64,000 nt of DNA, taken from assembly GCA_963668025.2 (NCBI GenBank), contig CAXXTH010000017.1, positions 608,001 to 672,000 of the forward strand, in the 5' to 3' direction. The notes beneath the pieces were generated by a model. The model saw only the letters and a list, made by a program, of their open reading frames with translations, did no database searches and was not told the DNA's origin. How positions within the stretch are numbered: position 1 is the first letter of the stretch; each line of letters opens with the position of its first letter. Positions 5,871 to 62,665 of this stretch are shown here, in pieces. Both the position numbers and the translations under genes were made by a program. The DNA comes from Candidatus Hydrogenedentota bacterium. GTDB lineage: Bacteria > Hydrogenedentota > Hydrogenedentia > Hydrogenedentales > SLHB01.

Positions 5871-6374
5871 GTGAACGAGCCAAGATATCGACATATGCAT
5901 CTCTGGCGCGCCAGGGGATTTACCCTCGCGGAAGTGATGGTCGCGTTGGCGGTTATATCCGTAGCCGTCACGATTGGCATCACGCTCTACAGTGCCGCCG
6001 CGACAATCGGCCAAAACACCCGTAGCGCCCAAGCGGCTTCGACGCTTGCCGTGGAAGCGCTGGCAGCTCTCCGAAACCATCCCCATGACTATGTATGGCC
6101 CGCATTGCAAACAGGCGAACAAGTAGAAATCAAAGCGCGCAGTGGCGAACAGGCATGCAGCGCGCCCTCTGTATTGCCAATTGAACCGCGCGCAAACCGC
6201 CGGGAAGCGGCATTCTACACGCGCTGCGCCTGGCAGGCATACGCGCGGCTGCCGGAAGAACATGCGCCTTATATGGAGCTTGCCATCGTGATTCGATGGA
6301 ACGCCGCCGGACAGGCGCGGGCGTTCACACTCACCACTCTCGCGCCACGCGCCCTGGCGGAAGGAGGCGCATGA
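5871..6374 (+). CDS. Prepilin-type pseudopilin (GspI/PilV-like)
   Basis: RG|FTLAEVMVALAVI class III signal; start uncertain (5838/5871/5895). Confidence 0.82.
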   Translation: MNEPRYRHMHLWRARGFTLAEVMVALAVISVAVTIGITLYSAAATIGQNTRSAQAASTLAVEALAALRNHPHDYVWPALQTGEQVEIKARSGEQACSAPSVLPIEPRANRREAAFYTRCAWQAYARLPEEHAPYMELAIVIRWNAAGQARAFTLTTLAPRALAEGGA

Positions 6375-7003
6375 TGCGCACCCCGTTGAAACAGCGCGGC
6401 TTCAGCCTGGTGGAGCTTATCATCGCGATTGGCATTCTAGGCGTGGTGTCCACCATTGGCGCAGTCATGTTCATCCGCATGTCTGATTTGTGGGGCGGCA
6501 TGCTCCATCGTGTAGACCTCGATATTACGGCGGATAATGCGTTCGACACGATTGGACGGGATGTGCGGGGATTGCTCCCGCTTGGGCTGGCGGATAAGCC
6601 GTTCACAGGAATCCGTGGAGATAGCGAAAGTGAAGGCGGGCCTTCCTTCGCTTGTGACCAGTTTTCCTTTCCTGTGCGGATGTGGGTGAGGCAGCCCAGT
6701 GAACCGCCTCTTGAAACAGTGGGCCTTGCCACCTATGCGCTGGACCGGGAAAGCCATTCGCTGATCCGCACGCTCACGCCTGTATCCGCGTCCGATTCGG
6801 AGGGCCAGCGTACGCTCATCGCCGCAGGCGTATCGAGTTTTCGCGTGGAATATGATCCAGGGCCAGGCGGAGCGGGATGGCTGCCGGAATGGAAAGAAAG
6901 CCGCCTGCCCCGCGCCATCCGCGTGAGCATAGTCCTGATGAATCCCGATCCGCCGAACGAACAAATCGCCCGCAAAGCGGTGTTCCCCGTGGAGGCCGAG
7001 TGA
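6371..7003 (+). CDS. Prepilin-type pseudopilin (GspJ-like)
   Basis: RG|FSLVELIIAIGIL; C-terminal W..EW...LPRAIRVSI; AGGAGG RBS. Confidence 0.85.
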   Translation: MMRTPLKQRGFSLVELIIAIGILGVVSTIGAVMFIRMSDLWGGMLHRVDLDITADNAFDTIGRDVRGLLPLGLADKPFTGIRGDSESEGGPSFACDQFSFPVRMWVRQPSEPPLETVGLATYALDRESHSLIRTLTPVSASDSEGQRTLIAAGVSSFRVEYDPGPGGAGWLPEWKESRLPRAIRVSIVLMNPDPPNEQIARKAVFPVEAE

Positions 7004-7004
7004 T

Positions 7005-7985
7005 ATGCGCGATGTGTTTCGCATATACAGACGGAAAACCGATGAACGCGGGATGGCGCTCATCGCGGCGTTGGCGCTGCTGGTGGTGTTCTCGCTGCTC
7101 GGAGCGGCGTATGTGCGTTCCATGATGCTCGAAATGGACCGCACCAATATGCTCGCCGCCCAATTGCGCGCGCGCGAAGCAGCGGCGGCGGGGGTGCGTG
7201 CGGCGATCTGCAAACTGGAAATGGCGGTGGCGGCCCACGAGGCGGAGGCGCTGCTGGCGCAGCCGTTGAACTTCGATTTGCCTGGATACGCGGCGGATGC
7301 ACAGGGCGGTCTTACCCCGTCATCAAATTGGAAGGTGTCGGTGGAAGCCGTTCTAAGCGATGAAAGCGCACGGCTGAATCTGAATCATGCCCCATCAAGC
7401 GTGCTGGCGCTGGCCTTGGGGATTGACGGGGAAAAGGCCCGCGCGCTCGCCGCTTCGCTGCCACGGGCGGGCGCATCAGGCGAAGGCGCATGGCTCACCA
7501 GCCCGGATGAATTGGTCTTGCGGGGCATTCTCACGCCGGAAACCTATCAGCACCTGAATCCCAATTGGTTCACGGTATACACGGTCCCGGAGCCCGCCCA
7601 GCCTGCGGCATGGTTCAATGTCAACGGCGCACCCCCAGAGTTGCTGGCGGCGGTGCTTCATATCACCCCGGAAGCGGCGCAAGCCGTGGTCCGCGCCCGG
7701 CCCTTCATAAACGTGGCCCAACTGGCGCAAGCAGCAGGGAAAGAGCCTTCGACGTTCGGCCTCAAACCCGATGAAGCCAGCCCGGATGGCTTGCCCGCCG
7801 CGCTGGCGTTCGAGCCAGTAAGCTTCCGCATCCAATGCCGCGCCTCGGCGGCATATACCGGTGGAAGCGCCTCCGCCAAAGCGCAGGCGGAAGCCGTCGT
7901 TTGTTTTAACAATCGGAAAGAACCAGCGATTACGTATTGGAATGAATCCTCGCTGGACGGTGAGGCCGCTGAGAAGCGCATGTAG
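7005..7985 (+). CDS. gspK: Type II secretion minor pseudopilin GspK-like
   Basis: RG|MALIAALALL; DESARLNLN and FNVNGAPPELLAA motifs typical of GspK. Confidence 0.8.
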   Translation: MRDVFRIYRRKTDERGMALIAALALLVVFSLLGAAYVRSMMLEMDRTNMLAAQLRAREAAAAGVRAAICKLEMAVAAHEAEALLAQPLNFDLPGYAADAQGGLTPSSNWKVSVEAVLSDESARLNLNHAPSSVLALALGIDGEKARALAASLPRAGASGEGAWLTSPDELVLRGILTPETYQHLNPNWFTVYTVPEPAQPAAWFNVNGAPPELLAAVLHITPEAAQAVVRARPFINVAQLAQAAGKEPSTFGLKPDEASPDGLPAALAFEPVSFRIQCRASAAYTGGSASAKAQAEAVVCFNNRKEPAITYWNESSLDGEAAEKRM

Positions 7986-31911: not shown

Positions 31912-32186
31912 ATCTATTCCCATTCCAGAAAACGGCGCTAACTATCTTATTTGTAATGAGTTATAGCTTCTATCGCCAACCCAGGCCATACATGCCATTA
32001 CGGAAAATGGCAAAATTCTGTCATAATGACAAACATGCTATCCGGTTGGCGCTTATAAAACGCCAAATCGTTGCCACATCATCCGCGTCTTCCCGAGGAT
32101 CAAAATCTTCGGACTCTTCGCGGAAGCTCCAACATACTGGTGGAGAGCCAGGCCAGGCAAATCACGTTAAAAACTACCCCGAATTG

Positions 32187-32250
32187 GCCTCAAGAGACAC
32201 AAAAAACGCAATAATCCGTTCATTTTGTGTCTTTTGCGCCTTTTGTGGCT
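32187..32250. repeat. Inverted pair of 3 x 9-bp arms
   Basis: GCCTCAAGAGACACAAAAAACGCAATA ... TTTTGTGTCTTTTGCGCCTTTTGTGGC. Confidence 0.7.
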
Positions 32251-32437
32251 CATTTTCTGGAAATGAGGGGAGTGGCATGTCAGATATGTTTGGACGAACA
32301 AACACAAATACGCTGATAAGAGGGAAAAGCACCCTTTCTTAATGCGATTGCCCTGCTGCCAGGCCCCATTGCATCCTGCATTTCAACGGGCTACAGTATA
32401 CAAGTAAAATCCATTACATCGGTTCAAGGAGGTTTAT

Positions 32438-32878
32438 ATGACGATTCGAACTCTCGTCCAAGATGCGCTCAAAGAGGCCATGAAAAACAAAGATACCTTT
32501 CGGCTCGAATGCCTGCGTATGGCGAAAGGCGCTTTATTGCTCAAAGAAAAGGAATCCAGCTCAGAGATTACGGAAGAACAAGCCATGGCGGCCCTGCGCG
32601 CGGAAGTAAGAAAGCGGCAGCAGAGCATCGAGATTTTCCGACAACACGGGAAAGAAGAGGAAGCCCAAGAGACCGAGCGCGAGATTAGTGTCTTCAACGA
32701 GTTTCTCCCCCAGCAACTATCCGAAGAAGAACTCGAAAACCGGGTGCGGGCGTATTTGGCGGCGCATCCCGAGATGAACCATCCCGGCAAACTCACGGGA
32801 GCGATAAAAAAAGAACTCGGCGAACAAGCGGATGGCAAAGCCCTCAACGCCATATGCCAGCGAGTGCTTGGCGCATAA
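32438..32878 (+). CDS. GatB/YqeY domain protein
   Basis: LKEAMKNKD..RL, EVRKRQQSIEIF, FLPQQLSEEE, ADGK; AGGAGG RBS. Confidence 0.93.
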   Translation: MTIRTLVQDALKEAMKNKDTFRLECLRMAKGALLLKEKESSSEITEEQAMAALRAEVRKRQQSIEIFRQHGKEEEAQETEREISVFNEFLPQQLSEEELENRVRAYLAAHPEMNHPGKLTGAIKKELGEQADGKALNAICQRVLGA

Positions 32879-32891
32879 AAAACAAAGTAAA

Positions 32892-32920
32892 GCCTCGGAG
32901 AGCTTCAAACCCTCCGAGGC
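32892..32920. terminator. Hairpin between convergent yqeY and flaG
   Basis: GCCTCGGAG...CTCCGAGGC. Confidence 0.65.
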
Positions 32921-32940
32921 GTTCCAAAATTCCAATCTAT

Positions 32941-33312
32941 TCAGGCCAGTTCGTCGAACAAGAGTCCTTGCACCTGCCGAACCCGCTCCATGATTTGAAG
33001 CTGTTCCTCGGGAGGAATCTGCTGAATGATCTCACCGTCTTGCCCCATAATCTGGGCAATGACCTGTTTGCTTGCTTCATCGAGACGTAGTTTTGTCCCG
33101 GTACGTTCCAGTGCAGCACTCTGAACAGATTGCGCCTTTTCCGTTTGCGAATCGTCGGAAGCTGTCTCCGGCTCCGTCTTTGGCAAGCGCACCATGGGCG
33201 CACTCGCAGCCGCTTCCTCATTCGAGGAGCTTTCTTGCTGCGTAGTCCGAGGCTGGAACTGGGCAGCAAGGGCGGCGCGCACATCTTGACTGGCCACGCT
33301 ATTCACTGCCAT
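32941..33312 (-). CDS. flaG: Flagellar protein FlaG
   Basis: Directly follows a flagellin; C-terminal GEIIQQIPPEEQL...GLLFDE. Confidence 0.88.
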   Translation of the reverse strand: MAVNSVASQDVRAALAAQFQPRTTQQESSSNEEAAASAPMVRLPKTEPETASDDSQTEKAQSVQSAALERTGTKLRLDEASKQVIAQIMGQDGEIIQQIPPEEQLQIMERVRQVQGLLFDELA

Positions 33313-33349
33313 GATCCATTCCTCCTATCAAACACCCGGCACACTGCCG

Positions 33350-34198
33350 CTACCCCAACAACGTAAGTGCATTTTGAGGCAGGATATTTGCCTGAGCAAG
33401 CACCGACGTGCCTGAACTGACGAGGATCTGGTTCCTGGTGAAGCCTATCGTCTCTTTGGCGATATCCGCATCACGAATCTCGCTCTCGGCAGCCGTCGCA
33501 TTTTCTTCCTGCGTCGCCAGATTATTTATCGTGTAATCCAAGCGATTCTGATACGCACCCAACTGGGAGCGCATGGAAGATACGGCGTTAATCGCGTTAT
33601 CAAAGGTTGTGATGGCTGTCTGAGCCGTTGCTTGAGTCGTGAGCGAAGAAGCAACAATCGATGTCGCTCCAATGCTGCCTGCGTTGACCCGGATGCTGTC
33701 CGTCGAGAAATTCAACGTAAACGTCTCGCCGTTCTTCGCGCCGATTTGCAGAGTGATGTTGCCATACCCTGTACCGGTGCTGCTCAGCATATAGATGCCG
33801 TTGAAGTTCGTCTGCGACGCGATCGACTCGATCTGCGCCGTGAGCTGGGCGCGCTCCTTATCGAGTTCCGTCCGGTTGGTGTCCGTATTCGTGCCGTTCG
33901 CGGCCTGCACCGCCAATTCACGCATACGCTGGAGCATATTGCCCACTTCGACCAGCGCGCCTTCCGCCGTCTGCACCATGCTGATGCCGTCTTGCGCATT
34001 GCGCTGCGCCACCTCCGAACCTGTCGCCTGGGCCTTGAATCCCTCAGCGATATACAGGCCAGCCGCATCATCAGCGGCGCGGTTAATCTTCAAACCGCTC
34101 GATAAGCGCTCCAACGACGTATTCAACGCGTCAGATGACTTTTCCAGTGAACGCGAGGCGTTCATTGCCGGAATATTCGTATTGATATTGAGACCCAT
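33350..34198 (-). CDS. fliC: Flagellin (short, D0/D1 only), third in tandem
   Basis: INTN..ERLSSGLKINRAADDAAG; RSQLGAYQNRL; IRDADIAKE; AAGGAGG RBS. Confidence 0.97.
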   Translation of the reverse strand: MGLNINTNIPAMNASRSLEKSSDALNTSLERLSSGLKINRAADDAAGLYIAEGFKAQATGSEVAQRNAQDGISMVQTAEGALVEVGNMLQRMRELAVQAANGTNTDTNRTELDKERAQLTAQIESIASQTNFNGIYMLSSTGTGYGNITLQIGAKNGETFTLNFSTDSIRVNAGSIGATSIVASSLTTQATAQTAITTFDNAINAVSSMRSQLGAYQNRLDYTINNLATQEENATAAESEIRDADIAKETIGFTRNQILVSSGTSVLAQANILPQNALTLLG

Positions 34199-34429
34199 GT
34201 TCAAACCCTCCTTGAGTGCTATACGGGGAGTCCCATCCCCGATCTAAAGGCTCGCCTGTTCAGGCCATCCTCCCATTGGATCACCCTCTTTAGCTCGCCG
34301 CCGGCCTTTCTGCACGGTGTGTCCCTCACCTTACAGTACCGGTTCTCAATCTGTTGGCTTCACCTCCTTCACGCAACGATGTTGCTGGATTGGCGGCATA
34401 CTTCCTCTTTCGCTAACCCATTATTCCCG

Positions 34430-35278
34430 TTATTGAAGCAGTTGAAGCGCTGACTGCGGCAACACATTAGCTTGCGCCAGCATGGAAGTGCCCGCGCTCA
34501 CCAAGATCTGGTTTCGCGTGAAACTAATAGTCTCTGTTGCGATGTCCGCATCACGAATCGCACTTTCCGCCGAGGTCGCATTCTCTTCCTGAACCGCAAG
34601 ATTATTAATCGTATAATCCAAACGATTCTGGTATGCGCCCAACTGGGAACGCATGGAAGACACCGCATTGATCGCGTTGTCAAATGTCGTGATAGCCGTC
34701 TGTGCGGTCGCCTGGGTCGAGAGCGATGACGCCAGAATCGATACCGTCCCAATTGTTCCTGAATTGATCCGGATGCTATCCGTCGAGAAAGTCAACGTGA
34801 AGGTTTCGCCATTCTTCGCGCCGATTTGAAGCGTGATGTTGCCATACCCGGTGCCCGCACTATTGAGCATATAGATGCCATTGAAGTTGGTTTGGGTGGC
34901 GATCGATTCGATCTGCGATGTAAGCTGGGCGCGTTCTTTATCCAATTCCGTCCGGTTGGTGTCCGTATTGGTGCCGTTCGCAGCCTGAACGGCCAATTCG
35001 CGCATCCGCTGGAGCATGTTTCCTACTTCAACCAGCGCGCCTTCCGCCGTCTGCACCATGCTGATGCCGTCTTGCGCATTGCGCTGCGCCACATCCGAAC
35101 CCGTAGCTTGCGCCTTGAATCCTTCTGCAATATATAAGCCCGCGGCATCATCCGCTGCGCGGTTGATCCGCAGACCACTGGATAGCCGTTCCAGCGAGGT
35201 TTCTAAGGCCGATGTCGATTTTTCAAGCGAACGGCTAGTATTCATCGCAGCTATATTTGTATTGATATTAAGGCCCAT
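34430..35278 (-). CDS. fliC: Flagellin (short), second in tandem
   Basis: Same conserved termini; AAGGAGG RBS. Confidence 0.97.
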   Translation of the reverse strand: MGLNINTNIAAMNTSRSLEKSTSALETSLERLSSGLRINRAADDAAGLYIAEGFKAQATGSDVAQRNAQDGISMVQTAEGALVEVGNMLQRMRELAVQAANGTNTDTNRTELDKERAQLTSQIESIATQTNFNGIYMLNSAGTGYGNITLQIGAKNGETFTLTFSTDSIRINSGTIGTVSILASSLSTQATAQTAITTFDNAINAVSSMRSQLGAYQNRLDYTINNLAVQEENATSAESAIRDADIATETISFTRNQILVSAGTSMLAQANVLPQSALQLLQ

Positions 35279-35490
35279 GTTCTTTCCCTCCTTGAGCGCC
35301 CGGCGGGGAGTCCCTTCCCGCCATAGGGCTAAGTTGAATGTGGTCCATTTCCCAGCGGCCAGCTATGCTCACGCATTGTCCCTTGGCCAGCCGCCGGGAC
35401 ATTTATCTATTCGATATGCGCCCCCTTTCTTGCAAATCGCTTCATTCGTATTACCCTTCCCTTGAGCGCGCTCTACTCTTTCCAGTGTCC

Positions 35491-36342
35491 CTACTGGAGG
35501 AGTTGGAGCGCTGTTTGCGGAACCACGTTGGCCTGTGATAACACCGACGTGCCCGCGCTCACCAATATCTGATTCCTGGTAAAGCTAATCGTCTCTTTAG
35601 CCATATCCGCGTCACGAATCGAGCTTTCAGAGGACGTTGCATTTTCTTCTTGCGTTGCCAAATTGTTAATCGTGTAATCCAGCCGGTTCTGGTAAGCGCC
35701 CAACTGGGAGCGCATGGAAGATACCGCATTGATGGCGCTATCAAATGTCGTGATAGCCGTCTGCGCTGTCGCTTGAGTTGTCAGCGATGACGCCACAATT
35801 GAGGTCGTTCCAATAAGGCCGCCGTTGATGCGGATGTTATCCGTCGCAAAAGTCAGCGTAAGCGTTTCACCCGTTTTTGCGCCAATCTGGAGCGTAACAT
35901 TCCCATACCCCACACCTGCGGCGTTGAGCATGTACAATCCATTGAAGTTGGTCTGGGTGGCGATGGACTCGATCTGAGATGTTAGCTGCGCTCGCTCTTT
36001 ATCAAGCTCCGTCCGGTTCGTATCCGTATTCGTGCCGTTCGCCGCTTGAACGGCCAATTCACGCATCCGCTGGAGCATATTGCCTACTTCAACCAGTGCG
36101 CCTTCCGCCGTCTGCACCATGCTGATGCCATCTTGCGCATTGCGCTGCGCTACCGCGGAACCTTTCGCCTGCGACCGCAATCCCTCTGCAATATACAGCC
36201 CGGCTGCATCATCCGACGCGCGGTTAATGCGTAATCCACTTGATAGACGTTCGAGGCTGGTATTCAGAGCTTTTGTCGATTTGTTAAGGTTGCGGTTCGT
36301 GTTGATGGCCGCAATATTTGTGTTGACGACTAAACCTGCCAT
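35491..36342 (-). CDS. fliC: Flagellin (short), first in tandem
   Basis: Start MAGLVVNTN at 36342 with GGAGGA RBS (ORF track over-extends to 36495). Confidence 0.97.
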   Translation of the reverse strand: MAGLVVNTNIAAINTNRNLNKSTKALNTSLERLSSGLRINRASDDAAGLYIAEGLRSQAKGSAVAQRNAQDGISMVQTAEGALVEVGNMLQRMRELAVQAANGTNTDTNRTELDKERAQLTSQIESIATQTNFNGLYMLNAAGVGYGNVTLQIGAKTGETLTLTFATDNIRINGGLIGTTSIVASSLTTQATAQTAITTFDSAINAVSSMRSQLGAYQNRLDYTINNLATQEENATSSESSIRDADMAKETISFTRNQILVSAGTSVLSQANVVPQTALQLLQ

Positions 36343-36985
36343 TGCTACATCCTCCGTGAGTACATTGTTGCGTATCCGTACGCAACTGCCCAAAATGCTT
36401 GCACGTTTTCCATAAACGCATCGTCCCAACGCGCCTGAACTATGGAAAAACATGCTCCGCTTCCAAACAATAGGCCCGAAAGCAGAACCCAGCACCGCAT
36501 CCCAGTTCGTATGGCCCCGGCTTCATGCACCTGTCCTTGTGTTATTCCCAAACAGGTATCGCATGCAGCCGCAGGCCCACGGGTCCCATGGAGTGCGCTA
36601 CTGGCGCGGCCACCCCGTTTCATTCCAGCGGCGCGTCCCACCACGCCAGACTAGAAATCCCTCAGCGCCAACTTGGCTTTCCCTGCCTGAACACGCCCGC
36701 CGCGCCGCATCTAACCGTCCCGAAAGAGTGCTTCACGCCTGCCGTGCTCGAGTCGCCGCCGAGCCTCCCCGTGAAAGGGAGACCGGATGTCCGCTCATTC
36801 AACTGTATATCCAGGTCTTGCCCTGGTTAAAGTGCTACTCCTTTCAACCGTCCTCCGTGACGGCCCCTCCGGCTTCTCGCAGCGCCCAGTCCCACCGTGC
36901 GCCACTCGCCGCCTTCGGCGATTTCCAGCATCCTTGCCTTCCGAGCCTCTGGGCGGCTTCACCAGCCACTTTCCAGCGCTCTCGA
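36343..36985 (-). promoter_or_regulatory. ~640-nt GGA-rich 5' leader of the flagellin operon with CsrA-type hairpins
   Basis: No credible ORF; hairpins TTGCGT-ACGGAT-ACGCAA, GGC-AAGGAT-GCT and CCGTC-ACGGAG-GACGG. Confidence 0.6.
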
Positions 36986-36990
36986 CGTAT

Positions 36991-37017
36991 TTATCGGCAG
37001 GCTTGAGCCAAACTTTA
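36991..37017 (-). promoter_or_regulatory. sigma28 (FliA) promoter
   Basis: TAAA-GTTTGGCTCAAGCCT(N15)-GCCGATAA, an exact consensus match. Confidence 0.92.
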
Positions 37018-37150
37018 GTCATTTTTTTCGAAACAACTCATTTTTTTTGAAAACAGTTTTTTAGGCGTAAAAACGCTTTGCGCCTGGCCAATCATTGTTC
37101 TAGAATATGCCCATATAAAACCGTACGGTAGTTTCGAGGAGCATACCCAC

Positions 37151-37657
37151 ATGCCTGACGCCGCCAATTTCCGCTTCGACCACTCTCTTGGCCCTATTTA
37201 TGGCTGGTTCAGCGAACGGGGCTTGCGCTGGTTGAAATTGCCCAATCCGGCTCATCAAGCTCCACGCTTGCCCCTACTCCACTCCTCCGTGAACGATATG
37301 CGCGTCTGGACACTCCATGCCGCTCTGGAACGGTATTTCGCGGGCATTCGCCAAGACTTTCAAGAGGTGCCGCTCGACCTTCAGCAAGGCACTCCTTTCC
37401 AGCACAGCGTCTGGCTCACGGCCCGGGATACCGTATGGGGTTGCGCTTCCTCATACGGCGCACTTGCCCGTCAATTGGGTAATCCCAACGCCTCCCGCGC
37501 CGTAGGCCAAGCCCTTGGCGCCAATCCTGTCCCCATACTCGTGCCTTGCCACCGCTTTCTCGCCCACGATGGCCGCTTAGGCGGATTCTCCTGCGGCCTA
37601 GAATGGAAACGGCTCTTGCTCGATACCGAAATAATCTCCGCCAAAACCCGCGATTGA
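37151..37657 (+). CDS. ogt: Methylated-DNA-protein-cysteine methyltransferase
   Basis: GTPFQ..VW, SYG.LA, RAVGQA, NPVPILVPCHR active site; upstream TTGCGC-N17-TAGAAT. Confidence 0.93.
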   Translation: MPDAANFRFDHSLGPIYGWFSERGLRWLKLPNPAHQAPRLPLLHSSVNDMRVWTLHAALERYFAGIRQDFQEVPLDLQQGTPFQHSVWLTARDTVWGCASSYGALARQLGNPNASRAVGQALGANPVPILVPCHRFLAHDGRLGGFSCGLEWKRLLLDTEIISAKTRD

Positions 37658-37750
37658 TTTCTCCACACAAGAGAGAAATAATGCTTCTACAGATCCACTC
37701 TGACGGCATAGTGAGTATTATAATTATAGTGAGATTAGGGAGAATTCTGA

Positions 37751-38581
37751 ATGCCGGCATGCATCCATGCTCCATTTGAGGTGATTTTTCTAGGCACAAG
37801 CGGCGGATTCATGATTCCCTCGTTTCATTGTCCATGCGAACGATGCCAGGAAGCCCGGCAATCTCCCGCCAAGGCCCGGACCCGTGCATCCGTATTAGTC
37901 CGTGGCGTAGAAACCATCCTCATTGACGCGAGCGCGGACATGGCTCTCCAGTTGGAGCGGGAATCCATTCGCCAAATAGATCGCATGTTTATCACCCACT
38001 GGCACTATGACCACATCCAAGGCTTGCCCGACCTCTTAATGCCCGCTAAGTTCGGAGGATGGAAACCGGTCGAGTTATATTTTCCCTCTCAGATGGCCCA
38101 CCACTTCGATGAAGACTTGGATTACCTGAATGGCATTGTGCAGCTTCATCCCGTTGAGCCAGGCGATTGCCTCGAGCTGCCCGATGGGCGCTGGGAGGTC
38201 GTCAAGACCACCCATACCCCGGAAAGCATCGGATTCATCTTCGGAAAAAAGGAGCGCCTGGCCTATCTGGTCGATGGGGTTGTACCGCCGCTGGAAACAC
38301 AGGAAAGGCTCAAGGACGTCTCTGTCTTGGTATTGGAATCCACCTTCGATGAAATCGAACCGCCCGAGGCGAGGCAATGGCCAAACTTCCATGCCCAGGC
38401 CGCTATCGATTTCTGGAAAAAGACCGGCATTCCTAAGTGCTATCTCACCCATCTGGCGTGCCATAGCTTCATCAATGGCCTGGTCGTGGCGGGCTTTTCA
38501 GACGAGAAACGAAAAGAGCTGGAACAGGCATACTCAGGGCTGGTTTTCGCTCATGACAAGATGCGTTTTCAATTGGCTTAA
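37751..38581 (+). CDS. MBL-fold hydrolase (PhnP-like phosphodiesterase)
   Basis: FLGTSGG, CPCERC, THWHYDHIQG, LTHL, FAHD. Confidence 0.88.
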   Translation: MPACIHAPFEVIFLGTSGGFMIPSFHCPCERCQEARQSPAKARTRASVLVRGVETILIDASADMALQLERESIRQIDRMFITHWHYDHIQGLPDLLMPAKFGGWKPVELYFPSQMAHHFDEDLDYLNGIVQLHPVEPGDCLELPDGRWEVVKTTHTPESIGFIFGKKERLAYLVDGVVPPLETQERLKDVSVLVLESTFDEIEPPEARQWPNFHAQAAIDFWKKTGIPKCYLTHLACHSFINGLVVAGFSDEKRKELEQAYSGLVFAHDKMRFQLA

Positions 38582-61650: not shown

Positions 61651-61678
61651 TAAAGATTTGTCCGGTTTCCGCCGATAC
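61651..61678 (+). promoter_or_regulatory. sigma28 promoter of the fourth flagellin; CsrA-type hairpin in the leader
   Basis: TAAA-N16-GCCGATAC; leader has TGC-AAGGA-TGCA (~61711-61721) and an AAGGAGGA SD. Confidence 0.8.
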
Positions 61679-61753
61679 ACCAATCGGAATCAGTAAGAGA
61701 TTCCAGCCGATGCAAGGATGCAAAGGCGACAATCATTCAAGGAGGAATGAACC

Positions 61754-62665
61754 GTGGGTCTCCGGATCAATACCAATGTAGCCGCCATCAACGCCGCGCG
61801 CACACTTCAAAAATCCACCCGCGCCCTCAATGTTAGCCTCGAACGTCTTTCTTCAGGGCTTCGTATAAATAGTGCTAAGGATGATGCGGCAGGATTAGCC
61901 ATTTCTGAGGGCTTGCGAACGGTCACCAAAGGTTCAATCGTAGCGCAGCGCAATGTACAAGACGGAATCAGCTTGCTGCAAACCGCGGAAGGCGCTCTGA
62001 CAGAAACCACCAACATGTTGCAGCGAATCCGTGAACTCGCTGTCCAAGCATCCAACGGCACGAATACGACAGATGATCGAGAAGCCATTCAAGCCGAAGT
62101 AGACCAGTTGATCGAACAGATCAATTCGGTTGCCAGGGATACGGAATTCAATGGCATCCGCCCCCTGGACCCTTCTAATACCTTGCAAACAGTGAACACT
62201 GCTCCTGTTTCCACCACCGGAAAGCTGACGCTTCAAGTGGGATTGCGGGAAGGCCAGACGATGCAAATCGATTTGAAAGCGGGAATGTCCGGGATTGGAG
62301 GGTCTTCCGCCGCCGCTCTTCCAGGTGCTGGAACCTTCACGACAATCGCCGATTTGACAACGACAGGCGTCTCTACCCAGGCGAATGCAAGTGAAGCCAT
62401 TACCGCCATCGATAGCGCGATTAGCTACATATCCGATTTACGGGCCCAATTTGGAGCGCAGCAAAACCGGCTCGAATACAACTTGGATACGTTAGCAATC
62501 CAGGAAGAAAACTCATCGGCTTCTGACAGCGCGCTGCGCGACGCCGATATCGCCCGCGAGACCACTAATTTCACCCGAAACCAAATCTTGGTGAGTTCAG
62601 GCACTTCAGTCCTCGCGCAATCGAACGTCATCCCGCAAACCGCATTACAATTGCTGGGACAATAA
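61754..62665 (+). CDS. fliC: Flagellin (divergent fourth paralog)
   Basis: GTG start; INTNVAA..ERLSSGLRINSAKDDAAG; RAQFGAQQNRL. Confidence 0.97.
   Translation: MGLRINTNVAAINAARTLQKSTRALNVSLERLSSGLRINSAKDDAAGLAISEGLRTVTKGSIVAQRNVQDGISLLQTAEGALTETTNMLQRIRELAVQASNGTNTTDDREAIQAEVDQLIEQINSVARDTEFNGIRPLDPSNTLQTVNTAPVSTTGKLTLQVGLREGQTMQIDLKAGMSGIGGSSAAALPGAGTFTTIADLTTTGVSTQANASEAITAIDSAISYISDLRAQFGAQQNRLEYNLDTLAIQEENSSASDSALRDADIARETTNFTRNQILVSSGTSVLAQSNVIPQTALQLLGQ

Follow-up and report, generated by a model that had tools for sequence, protein, structure and literature searches.

The window analysed here is a 64,000-nucleotide (nt) stretch of contig CAXXTH010000017.1 from a Candidatus Hydrogenedentota bacterium, and its subject of interest is the long non-coding leader of a flagellin array. 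Three tandem flagellin open reading frames (ORFs) lie on the minus strand, all with Pfam Flagellin_N and Flagellin_C domains (Flagellin_N E about 1e-43): flagellin 1 at 35491..36342 (283 amino acids (aa); Flagellin_N 5.3e-43, Flagellin_C 5.7e-26; ATG at 36342), flagellin 2 at 34430..35278 (282 aa) and flagellin 3 at 33350..34198, which probably begins with the ATG at 34198. A sigma-28 (FliA) type promoter occupies 36991..37017 on the same strand. It reads TAAAG-N15-GCCGATAA (exact word TAAAGTTTGGCTCAAGCCTGCCGATAA), has an A-rich tract just upstream, and is the sole match to TAAA-N14-16-GCCGATAA in the window (0.02 expected; 2 of 100 shuffles had one). From the end of its -10 element to the first flagellin ATG there are 648 nt (36343..36990), with 37.5% G on the sense strand. 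A fourth, solo flagellin (unit 61651..62665, ORF 61754-62665, plus strand) served as an internal comparison; its own sigma-28 motif lies 75 nt upstream, and its 75-nt leader consists of a GAUGCAAGGAUGC hairpin and AAGGAGGA. An earlier reading of this stretch (the original prediction) had described a triple-flagellin operon behind an exact sigma-28 promoter about 650 nt away and a fourth flagellin with a short leader, and in these respects it holds.

No closer promoter was found. Scans returned no further sigma-28 motif with up to two mismatches in the 1.2 kb ahead of either flagellin 1 or flagellin 2, none with up to one mismatch in 32001-38500, and no sigma-70-like promoter in the leader; no sigma-54 motif was noticed near the ATG, where inspection was by eye only. 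Beyond the array promoter lies a divergent methylguanine-methyltransferase-like gene (37151-37657, plus strand). Contigs from four DNA sequencing runs covering 35400-37300 carry identical or near-identical copies of the leader, without informative variants. In the whole genome, TAAA-N14-16-GCCGATAN has 15 matches, of which one is the motif 75 nt before the fourth flagellin and another sits 222 nt before a 583-aa ORF. Outside the window, on contig C2 (about 6100-7060, minus strand), a 36-nt repeat, GTTTCCATGCTTGATAAAGCATGGCTCCATTGAAGC, recurs regularly between unique spacers that are about 30-36 nt long. The arrangement has the look of a clustered regularly interspaced short palindromic repeat (CRISPR) array whose repeat mimics the promoter pattern.

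The leader does not appear to encode a protein. The three ORFs that span it, one of 184 aa on the plus strand and two of 99 and 75 aa on the minus, were rejected as hidden genes: none matches a Pfam family, and their codon-usage scores of -0.14 to -0.28 are non-coding (real genes of the same genome, 0.157±0.107; antisense frames, -0.35±0.28). Indels in an alignment of leaders from one related genus are not multiples of 3. The motif scans, Pfam and codon scores thus agree with the earlier statement that the leader holds neither a second sigma-28 motif nor a credible ORF. A decayed flagellin gene was likewise rejected, since the four flagellins, used as tblastn queries, drew nothing but noise from the leader (best E 0.13, in a search space of 648 nt). 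By blastn the leader matches only itself in its own genome. No Rfam family reached its gathering score anywhere in the window, and at E up to 10 over 36200-37200 the only hit, ES173, was a chance match to the A-rich tract upstream of the promoter (15.4 bits, cut-off 90).

Composition and fold of the leader

On the minus strand, positions 36343-37017 contain 28 GGA and 9 ANGGA, against 4 GGA and 3 ANGGA on the plus strand, in line with the tallies made by eye in the original prediction (~28, about 9 and ~4). The base counts of these 675 nt on the sense strand are G 249, C 152, A 145 and T 129. The 648-nt transcribed part was compared with 2000 of its dinucleotide shuffles and has an excess both of GGA (28 versus 18.5±3.0; fraction reaching 28, 0.0015) and of ANGGA (9 versus 4.0±1.9; fraction 0.011). 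Genome windows of 675 nt hold 12.0±4.2 GGA per strand, and just 688 of 490,378 reach at least 28. Intergenic gaps of at least 200 nt (1557 sense strands, from a rough gene map) have 24.5±4.0% G and 1.65±0.75 GGA per 100 nt; by the same measure the density is 4.3 in the leader and 4.7 and 4.0 in the two inter-flagellin spacers. The composition of the leader is itself unusual, with a real GGA excess on top.

Other very GGA-dense windows and gaps exist in the genome, with up to 39 GGA in 675 nt (C10:328126 and C22:22651, both minus strand; likewise C17:1256251-1265837, minus, and C18:143837-144403, plus). These may be glycine-rich or acidic coding regions.

The leader is predicted to fold strongly. 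Its minimum free energy (MFE) is -288 to -294 kcal/mol, compared with -250±6 in 20 dinucleotide shuffles (z -6.3); in a larger set, none of 294 shuffles (-251.3±7.0 kcal/mol) was as low as the leader at -293.8. Seven GGA lie wholly inside hairpin loops of the MFE fold, a number that none of the 294 shuffles reached (1.7±1.3). Such a comparison with shuffled controls, for loop-exposed ANGGA, was the first check proposed with the original prediction; made here for GGA, it came out in favour of a real excess. Fully unpaired GGA number 10, against 4.3±1.9 in shuffles, and the loops of the MFE fold include ACGGAG, GGGACG, AGGGAAA, GUGGGA and the operator loop CGGA. A local stem scan (stem of at least 4 pairs, loop of 3-9 nt) placed 8 GGA in loops, against 4.1±2.0 (fraction 0.053).

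Several elements can be placed along the leader, all on the minus strand. Near the 5' end, a small hairpin found in the local stem scan, CGCU-GGAA-AGUG (36967..36978), stands at the place of a family-conserved GCCGGAAUGG element. A second 5' hairpin from the same scan, GGCA-AGGA-UGCU (36927..36938), is similar to GCAAGGAUGC, the operator hairpin seen in solo flagellin leaders. The MFE fold contains GCCGUC-ACGGAG-GACGGU (36847..36864), with ACGGAG in its loop; an orphan AAAGGAG is present at about 36841, and the motif ACAGTTGAATGAG, common to leaders of other genera, at 36794..36806. Further down, a terminator-like hairpin (36488-36454; 15 pairs, 6 of them G-C) is followed by AUGUUUUUCC, the whole spanning 36445..36488, 108 nt before the ATG; it is a weak candidate for an attenuator or a 3' end. 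The leader closes with the operator hairpin BS1, GUUGCG-UACGGAUA-CGCAAC (36367..36386), which has GGA in its loop and occurs in both the MFE fold and the local stem scan, and with the Shine-Dalgarno region CACGGAGGA (BS2; 36350..36358), which has two overlapping GGA and lies 7 nt before the ATG. The three hairpins that the original prediction had named were all recovered, CCGTC-ACGGAG-GACGG and TGCGTA-CGGA-TACGCA in the MFE fold and GGCA-AGGA-TGCT in the local stem scan.

Hairpins equivalent to BS1 also precede flagellins 2 and 3 as well as flagellin genes of the family. Spacer 1 (35279..35490, minus strand; 212 nt) has 10 GGA, with 2 on the opposite strand, and carries the hairpin GGCGGG-AAGGGAC-UCCCCGCC (35322-35302) and the Shine-Dalgarno sequence AAGGAGG (35293-35287). 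Spacer 2 (34199..34429, minus strand) has 9 GGA, counted over 34205-34429, with the hairpin GGGGA-UGGGAC-UCCCC (34240-34225) and again AAGGAGG (34213-34207).

The protein partners that CsrA control of a flagellin would involve are encoded in the genome, as the original prediction required. csrA (91 bits; C17:1385181-1385339) adjoins fliW (118.6 bits), the pair occupying C17:1385181-1385736, and a FliA-type sigma factor is present (FliA_WhiG, 251 bits). In the family, 51 of 54 genomes have a CsrA match. Two of the remaining three are 76% and 81% complete and have flagellin. The third, G007, lacks flagellin as well and is the sole fully complete (100%) family genome without a flagellin match, a pattern that fits a flagellum-dedicated CsrA lost along with motility.

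The same design across the family

The nearest named flagellin (63% identity) comes from a Candidatus Hydrogenedentota metagenome-assembled genome, and scans of genome and metagenome contigs with flagellin 1 found no relative above 63% and 61% protein identity, respectively. The organisation of the locus was compared among genomes of the same family, 52 of 54 of which have flagellin, mostly in tandem arrays. The sample comprised 36 array loci from 36 genomes, probably of the phylum Hydrogenedentota. In 34 of them, and in the present genome, a sigma-28 motif with at most one mismatch precedes an array gene at 163-692 nt, most distances being around 500 nt; the two loci left out are L132, with no motif found and a contig that starts nearby, and L134, a solo-type gene. 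The array promoter aligns column for column in all 35 loci as CTAAAGTT-N4-5-CTAAAGTTGCCGATAA. At 15 solo flagellin genes in the same loci, the sigma-28 motif lies 77-85 nt upstream. Since the long leader recurs in 34 relatives with the same promoter, it is a conserved trait of the arrays and not an accident of one genome.

In the array promoter there are two copies of CTAAAGTT, the first at the -35 position and the second directly against the -10 element (36991-37024, minus strand, in the window, and in the 34 relatives). The second copy is degenerate in the present genome, where it reads CTCAAGCC, and it is missing from solo flagellin promoters.

All 35 leaders are G-rich and T-poor (30-40% G, 11-22% T). 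Together they contain 612 GGA, against 450 expected and 182 on the antisense strand, with counts above the shuffle mean in 34 of 35, and 256 ANGGA against 101 expected. After the first 45 and last 60 nt had been trimmed and 7 near-duplicates dropped, 27 middle parts had a length of 80 nt or more, and in these ANGGA was still 2.2-fold enriched (123 versus 55.5). A occupies the position two bases ahead of GGA 37% of the time, compared with 21% from base composition (28 middle parts). CsrA prefers A(N)GGA, and the enrichment of A at this position fits that preference.

The fold is kept as well. Among 16 relatives' leaders chosen to span genera, every one folds better than its shuffles (18 each; z -1.6 to -8.1, mean -4.5), and their loops hold 74 GGA where composition-keeping shuffles give 17.1, a 4.3-fold excess. 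The local stem scan over all 35 leaders counted 183 loop GGA against 98 and exceeded expectation in 30 of them.

Outside both ends, the leader sequences have no detectable similarity to one another. Leaders do not align between genera save for three parts: roughly the first 30 nt, a frequent second hairpin and roughly the last 45 nt. An alignment of the promoter with the first 42 nt of the 35 leaders gave the 5' consensus AAACGACAGAAAGGCCGGAAUGGNCC, often a small hairpin with GGA in or at its loop. The frequent second 5' hairpin, of the type GCAAGGAUGC, copies the operator hairpin of solo leaders, and at least 8 other leaders have similar ones. A GGA-loop hairpin makes up the last roughly 45 nt together with CACGGAGGA or CAAGGAGG, of which one or the other is kept before nearly every family flagellin gene compared. 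Of the elements of the present leader, BS1 alone has DNA similarity in other genera, and a search with the leader in 40 relatives returned a single match of 43 nt, at the operator.

Within a single genus, seven leaders could be aligned (alignment A1), with 174 of 590 columns invariant. Among the conserved blocks are CUCC-AGGGACA-GGAG, UUUGGGACAC, the 5' GGCGGAAUG and also the operator. The consensus fold (RNAalifold) has 121 pairs, 42 with at least one compensatory change; a GCAGCC/GGCUGC hairpin varies to CAGCG/CGCUG and to CAGCA/UGCUG, and GGA hairpins such as CUCC-AGGGACA-GGAG are invariant. GGA is invariant at 28 of its 76 places, a higher share than for trinucleotides overall (296 of 2114); leaving out the last 60 columns, the counts are 16 of 63 against 200 of 1886. 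The covariation sought for the original prediction thus exists in this genus, but the present leader has no relative with which it could be aligned.

The word ACAGTTGAATGAG is exact in the present genome and in G063, with variants of 1-2 mismatches in 9 further leaders. The motif (A)CAGTTGAATG(A/G)G recurs in leaders that cannot be aligned (L114, L123-L126, L128, L131, L135, L148 and L149). Its position differs, being about +185 in the present leader, about +150 for one genus and, in other cases, between about +33 and +42. The ATG inside it is not conserved and is therefore not a start codon.

Interpretation and rival explanations

An RNA that stays folded with A(N)GGA in its loops while its sequence drifts bears a hallmark of CsrA binding, and this argues for a multi-site CsrA-binding leader. 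With moderate confidence, we read the stretch as such a 5' leader fused to the flagellin mRNA, which would combine an operator with built-in decoy capacity. From the sequence we infer the transcription start and co-transcription with the flagellin genes; on the same basis the flagellin mRNA probably binds many CsrA molecules and may soak up CsrA.

In the proposed mechanism, the stretch would be the 5' untranslated leader of a three-gene flagellin transcript made from the sigma-28 promoter, a folded G-rich RNA presenting many A(N)GGA in hairpin loops. Its last 45 nt would act as a two-site CsrA operator, formed by a GGA hairpin and a GGA-containing Shine-Dalgarno sequence; the first roughly 65 nt would add two GGA hairpins, and the variable 500-nt middle would add more loop GGA. 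CsrA dimers would then bind at several places, with the distal sites serving as a platform or decoy that sets the amount of free CsrA reaching the operator. While late flagellar transcription is on, the abundant flagellin mRNA could draw CsrA off other targets, and FliW would remain the protein antagonist. Three functions would be compatible with this arrangement: a decoy or buffer, protection of the 5' end by CsrA at the two 5' hairpins, and control at multiple levels as in the pgaA leader of Escherichia coli. The G-rich, C-poor and folded make-up could in addition keep Rho off the long untranslated RNA. A stronger version, in which the leader is a cis-encoded sponge of CsrB-like capacity that binds at least 4 CsrA dimers per transcript, so that switching on sigma-28 would itself release the wider CsrA regulon, is possible, and we hold it only tentatively.

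Several observations weigh against the multi-site leader. Shuffles already yield 18.5 of the 28 GGA, so that about two thirds of the raw count is compositional, as the original prediction itself had cautioned; AGGA (5 versus 3.4) and GGAG (6 versus 5.9) have no enrichment over shuffles. The local stem scan for the present genome is borderline by itself, and for 5 of the 35 leaders its count does not exceed expectation. Plain GGA is only modestly in excess within the middle parts (336 versus 268.5, 1.25-fold), and in A1 the trinucleotides GCT, CTT and GAG are about as conserved as GGA. Because no relative of the present leader can be aligned with it, its own fold has no covariation support. The family genomes are kin, so the leader counts are not independent trials. 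There may also be a proximal promoter of another sigma type.

The rival that survives best takes up some of these points. A structured 5' untranslated region could be unrelated to extra CsrA binding, with CsrA acting at the terminal operator only and the distal GGA arising as by-products of G-richness and folding; its jobs might be stability against ribonucleases (RNases), the absence of Rho loading sites, mRNA localisation or the binding of another factor. Folding is strong in each of the 17 leaders tested, which speaks for this explanation, and it also fits the G-rich, T-poor make-up of all 35 leaders, the 1.25-fold figure for plain GGA, and the fact that conserved elements without GGA exist, namely the compensated GCAGCC/GGCUGC hairpin and the ACAGTTGAATGAG motif. 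Against it stand the ANGGA enrichment in the middle parts with its preference for A at -2, the excess of loop GGA over shuffles that keep composition, and two 5' hairpins that both copy the operator hairpin of solo flagellin leaders. On balance we consider it rather unlikely.

The leader might instead be a separate CsrB-like small RNA, ended at the 36488-36445 hairpin or cut by an RNase. No promoter motif lies between this hairpin and the ATG, so the flagellin genes would then depend on read-through. The hairpin with its U5 run is suggestive, and 7 of 35 leaders (the present genome, L120, L124, L126, L128, L135 and L142) have a short T run 96-112 nt ahead of the ATG, similarly placed despite little sequence likeness between some of them. 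The genome also contains two short, sigma-28-driven units that end in terminators, one of them GGA-dense. Yet terminator-like sites in the region are no commoner than in shuffles (6 versus 5.0), the MFE fold allows the U run to pair further downstream, stretches of at least 4 T are absent from 17 of the 35 leaders, and no terminator is conserved between leader and gene. Rfam matched no RNA family of this kind to the leader, and across 20 relatives' loci it found nothing but a tRNA. We regard a separate RNA as improbable. The original prediction of a CsrB-like RNA is therefore upheld in part: the non-coding, GGA-rich leader stands, and its design recurs in 34 relatives, but a separate or processed RNA finds no support in Rfam or in a conserved terminator. 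Nor does the sequence support an independent unit with its own terminator, as in the CsrB/Rsm small RNAs: the leader runs into the flagellin gene and offers one weak, unconserved hairpin only.

The two short units just mentioned lie outside the window at C17:1420470-1420031 (minus strand), where a pair of sigma-28 motifs, separated by 192 nt, stand at the head of one unit each, both units ended by a hairpin and U run. The first, of about 120 nt, carries AAGTTGAATGGG, a motif common to the flagellin leader. The second is 221 nt long and contains 8 GGA (shuffles 5.4±1.6), of which hairpin loops hold 2 (0.3±0.5); its fold reaches -76.4 kcal/mol (-62.5±5.0). This second unit is a candidate for a flagellar small RNA in its own right, one that may bind CsrA.

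Finally, a functionless spacer, for instance a decayed former gene behind an irrelevant far promoter match, would explain why genera have no sequence conservation outside both ends, but it is very improbable given that the promoter and the long distance are kept in 34 relatives, that folding is far better than in shuffles, that one genus has conserved blocks and compensatory pairs, and that tblastn found no flagellin remnant in its tiny search space.

Comparison with known systems

The operator end of the leader has a familiar layout. The Bacillus subtilis hag leader, part of the Hag-FliW-CsrA partner switch, reportedly combines a sigma-D/sigma-28 promoter with a BS1 GGA hairpin and a BS2 that overlaps the Shine-Dalgarno sequence. 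This layout is matched by the last 45 nt of the present leader and by the 75-nt solo leader. Unlike hag, the array leader has about 600 extra structured, GGA-rich nt upstream of the operator. To our knowledge, CsrA systems with the protein antagonist FliW are usually thought to do without sponge RNAs, and the single documented RNA antagonist in such a system that we know of is the short Campylobacter flaA leader.

In Campylobacter jejuni, the flaA mRNA leader is both a CsrA target and a CsrA titrator (Dugar et al. 2016, PMC4894983). As CsrA titration by a flagellin leader has already been published there, the present leader would represent an enlarged variant and not a new principle. The two have in common a flagellin mRNA leader, loop GGA, a FliW-type CsrA and no known Csr small RNA. 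In flaA the leader is short and has two GGA hexaloops, whereas the present one is about 640 nt long, has 28 GGA with 7-9 in predicted loops, and precedes three flagellin genes, each with its own operator.

Long leaders with several CsrA sites are also described for Escherichia coli, where, according to a further paper, the pgaA leader has six CsrA sites and two sites at the flhDC leader's 5' end protect the mRNA from RNase E (PMC7652899). With these, the present leader has in common its length, its non-coding nature and multiple, here predicted, CsrA sites, and its two conserved 5' GGA hairpins could act like the flhDC 5' sites. The genes and the phylum are different, and the likeness does not imply Rho-dependent or RNase E-dependent steps.

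With CsrB, CsrC and RsmX-Z of Gammaproteobacteria, the leader has in common many GGA in hairpin loops and a non-coding, fast-evolving RNA. Those RNAs are independent genes with their own terminators and GacA/UvrY-type control, whereas the present RNA is fused to an mRNA, would be driven by sigma-28 and has no Rfam match. Their GGA density is somewhat above the 4.3 per 100 nt of the leader.

A whole family thus keeps a leader five to eight times the length that the operator needs, folded and with CsrA-type loop motifs, while its sequence drifts. If CsrA binds at many sites, the level of flagellin mRNA would be an input to the CsrA regulon and not an output alone, and bacteria with FliW-type CsrA would gain an RNA antagonist whose sequence evolves fast while its display of GGA hairpins is kept. 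The 35 natural variants form a ready-made series for asking what a sponge requires. No long multi-GGA flagellin leader appears among the papers that the literature searches listed, and Hydrogenedentota are not mentioned in those checked for the name. Set beside these systems, the leader appears to be a variant, new and shared across the family, of a CsrA-flagellin leader type already known, and a sponge capacity is possible for it.

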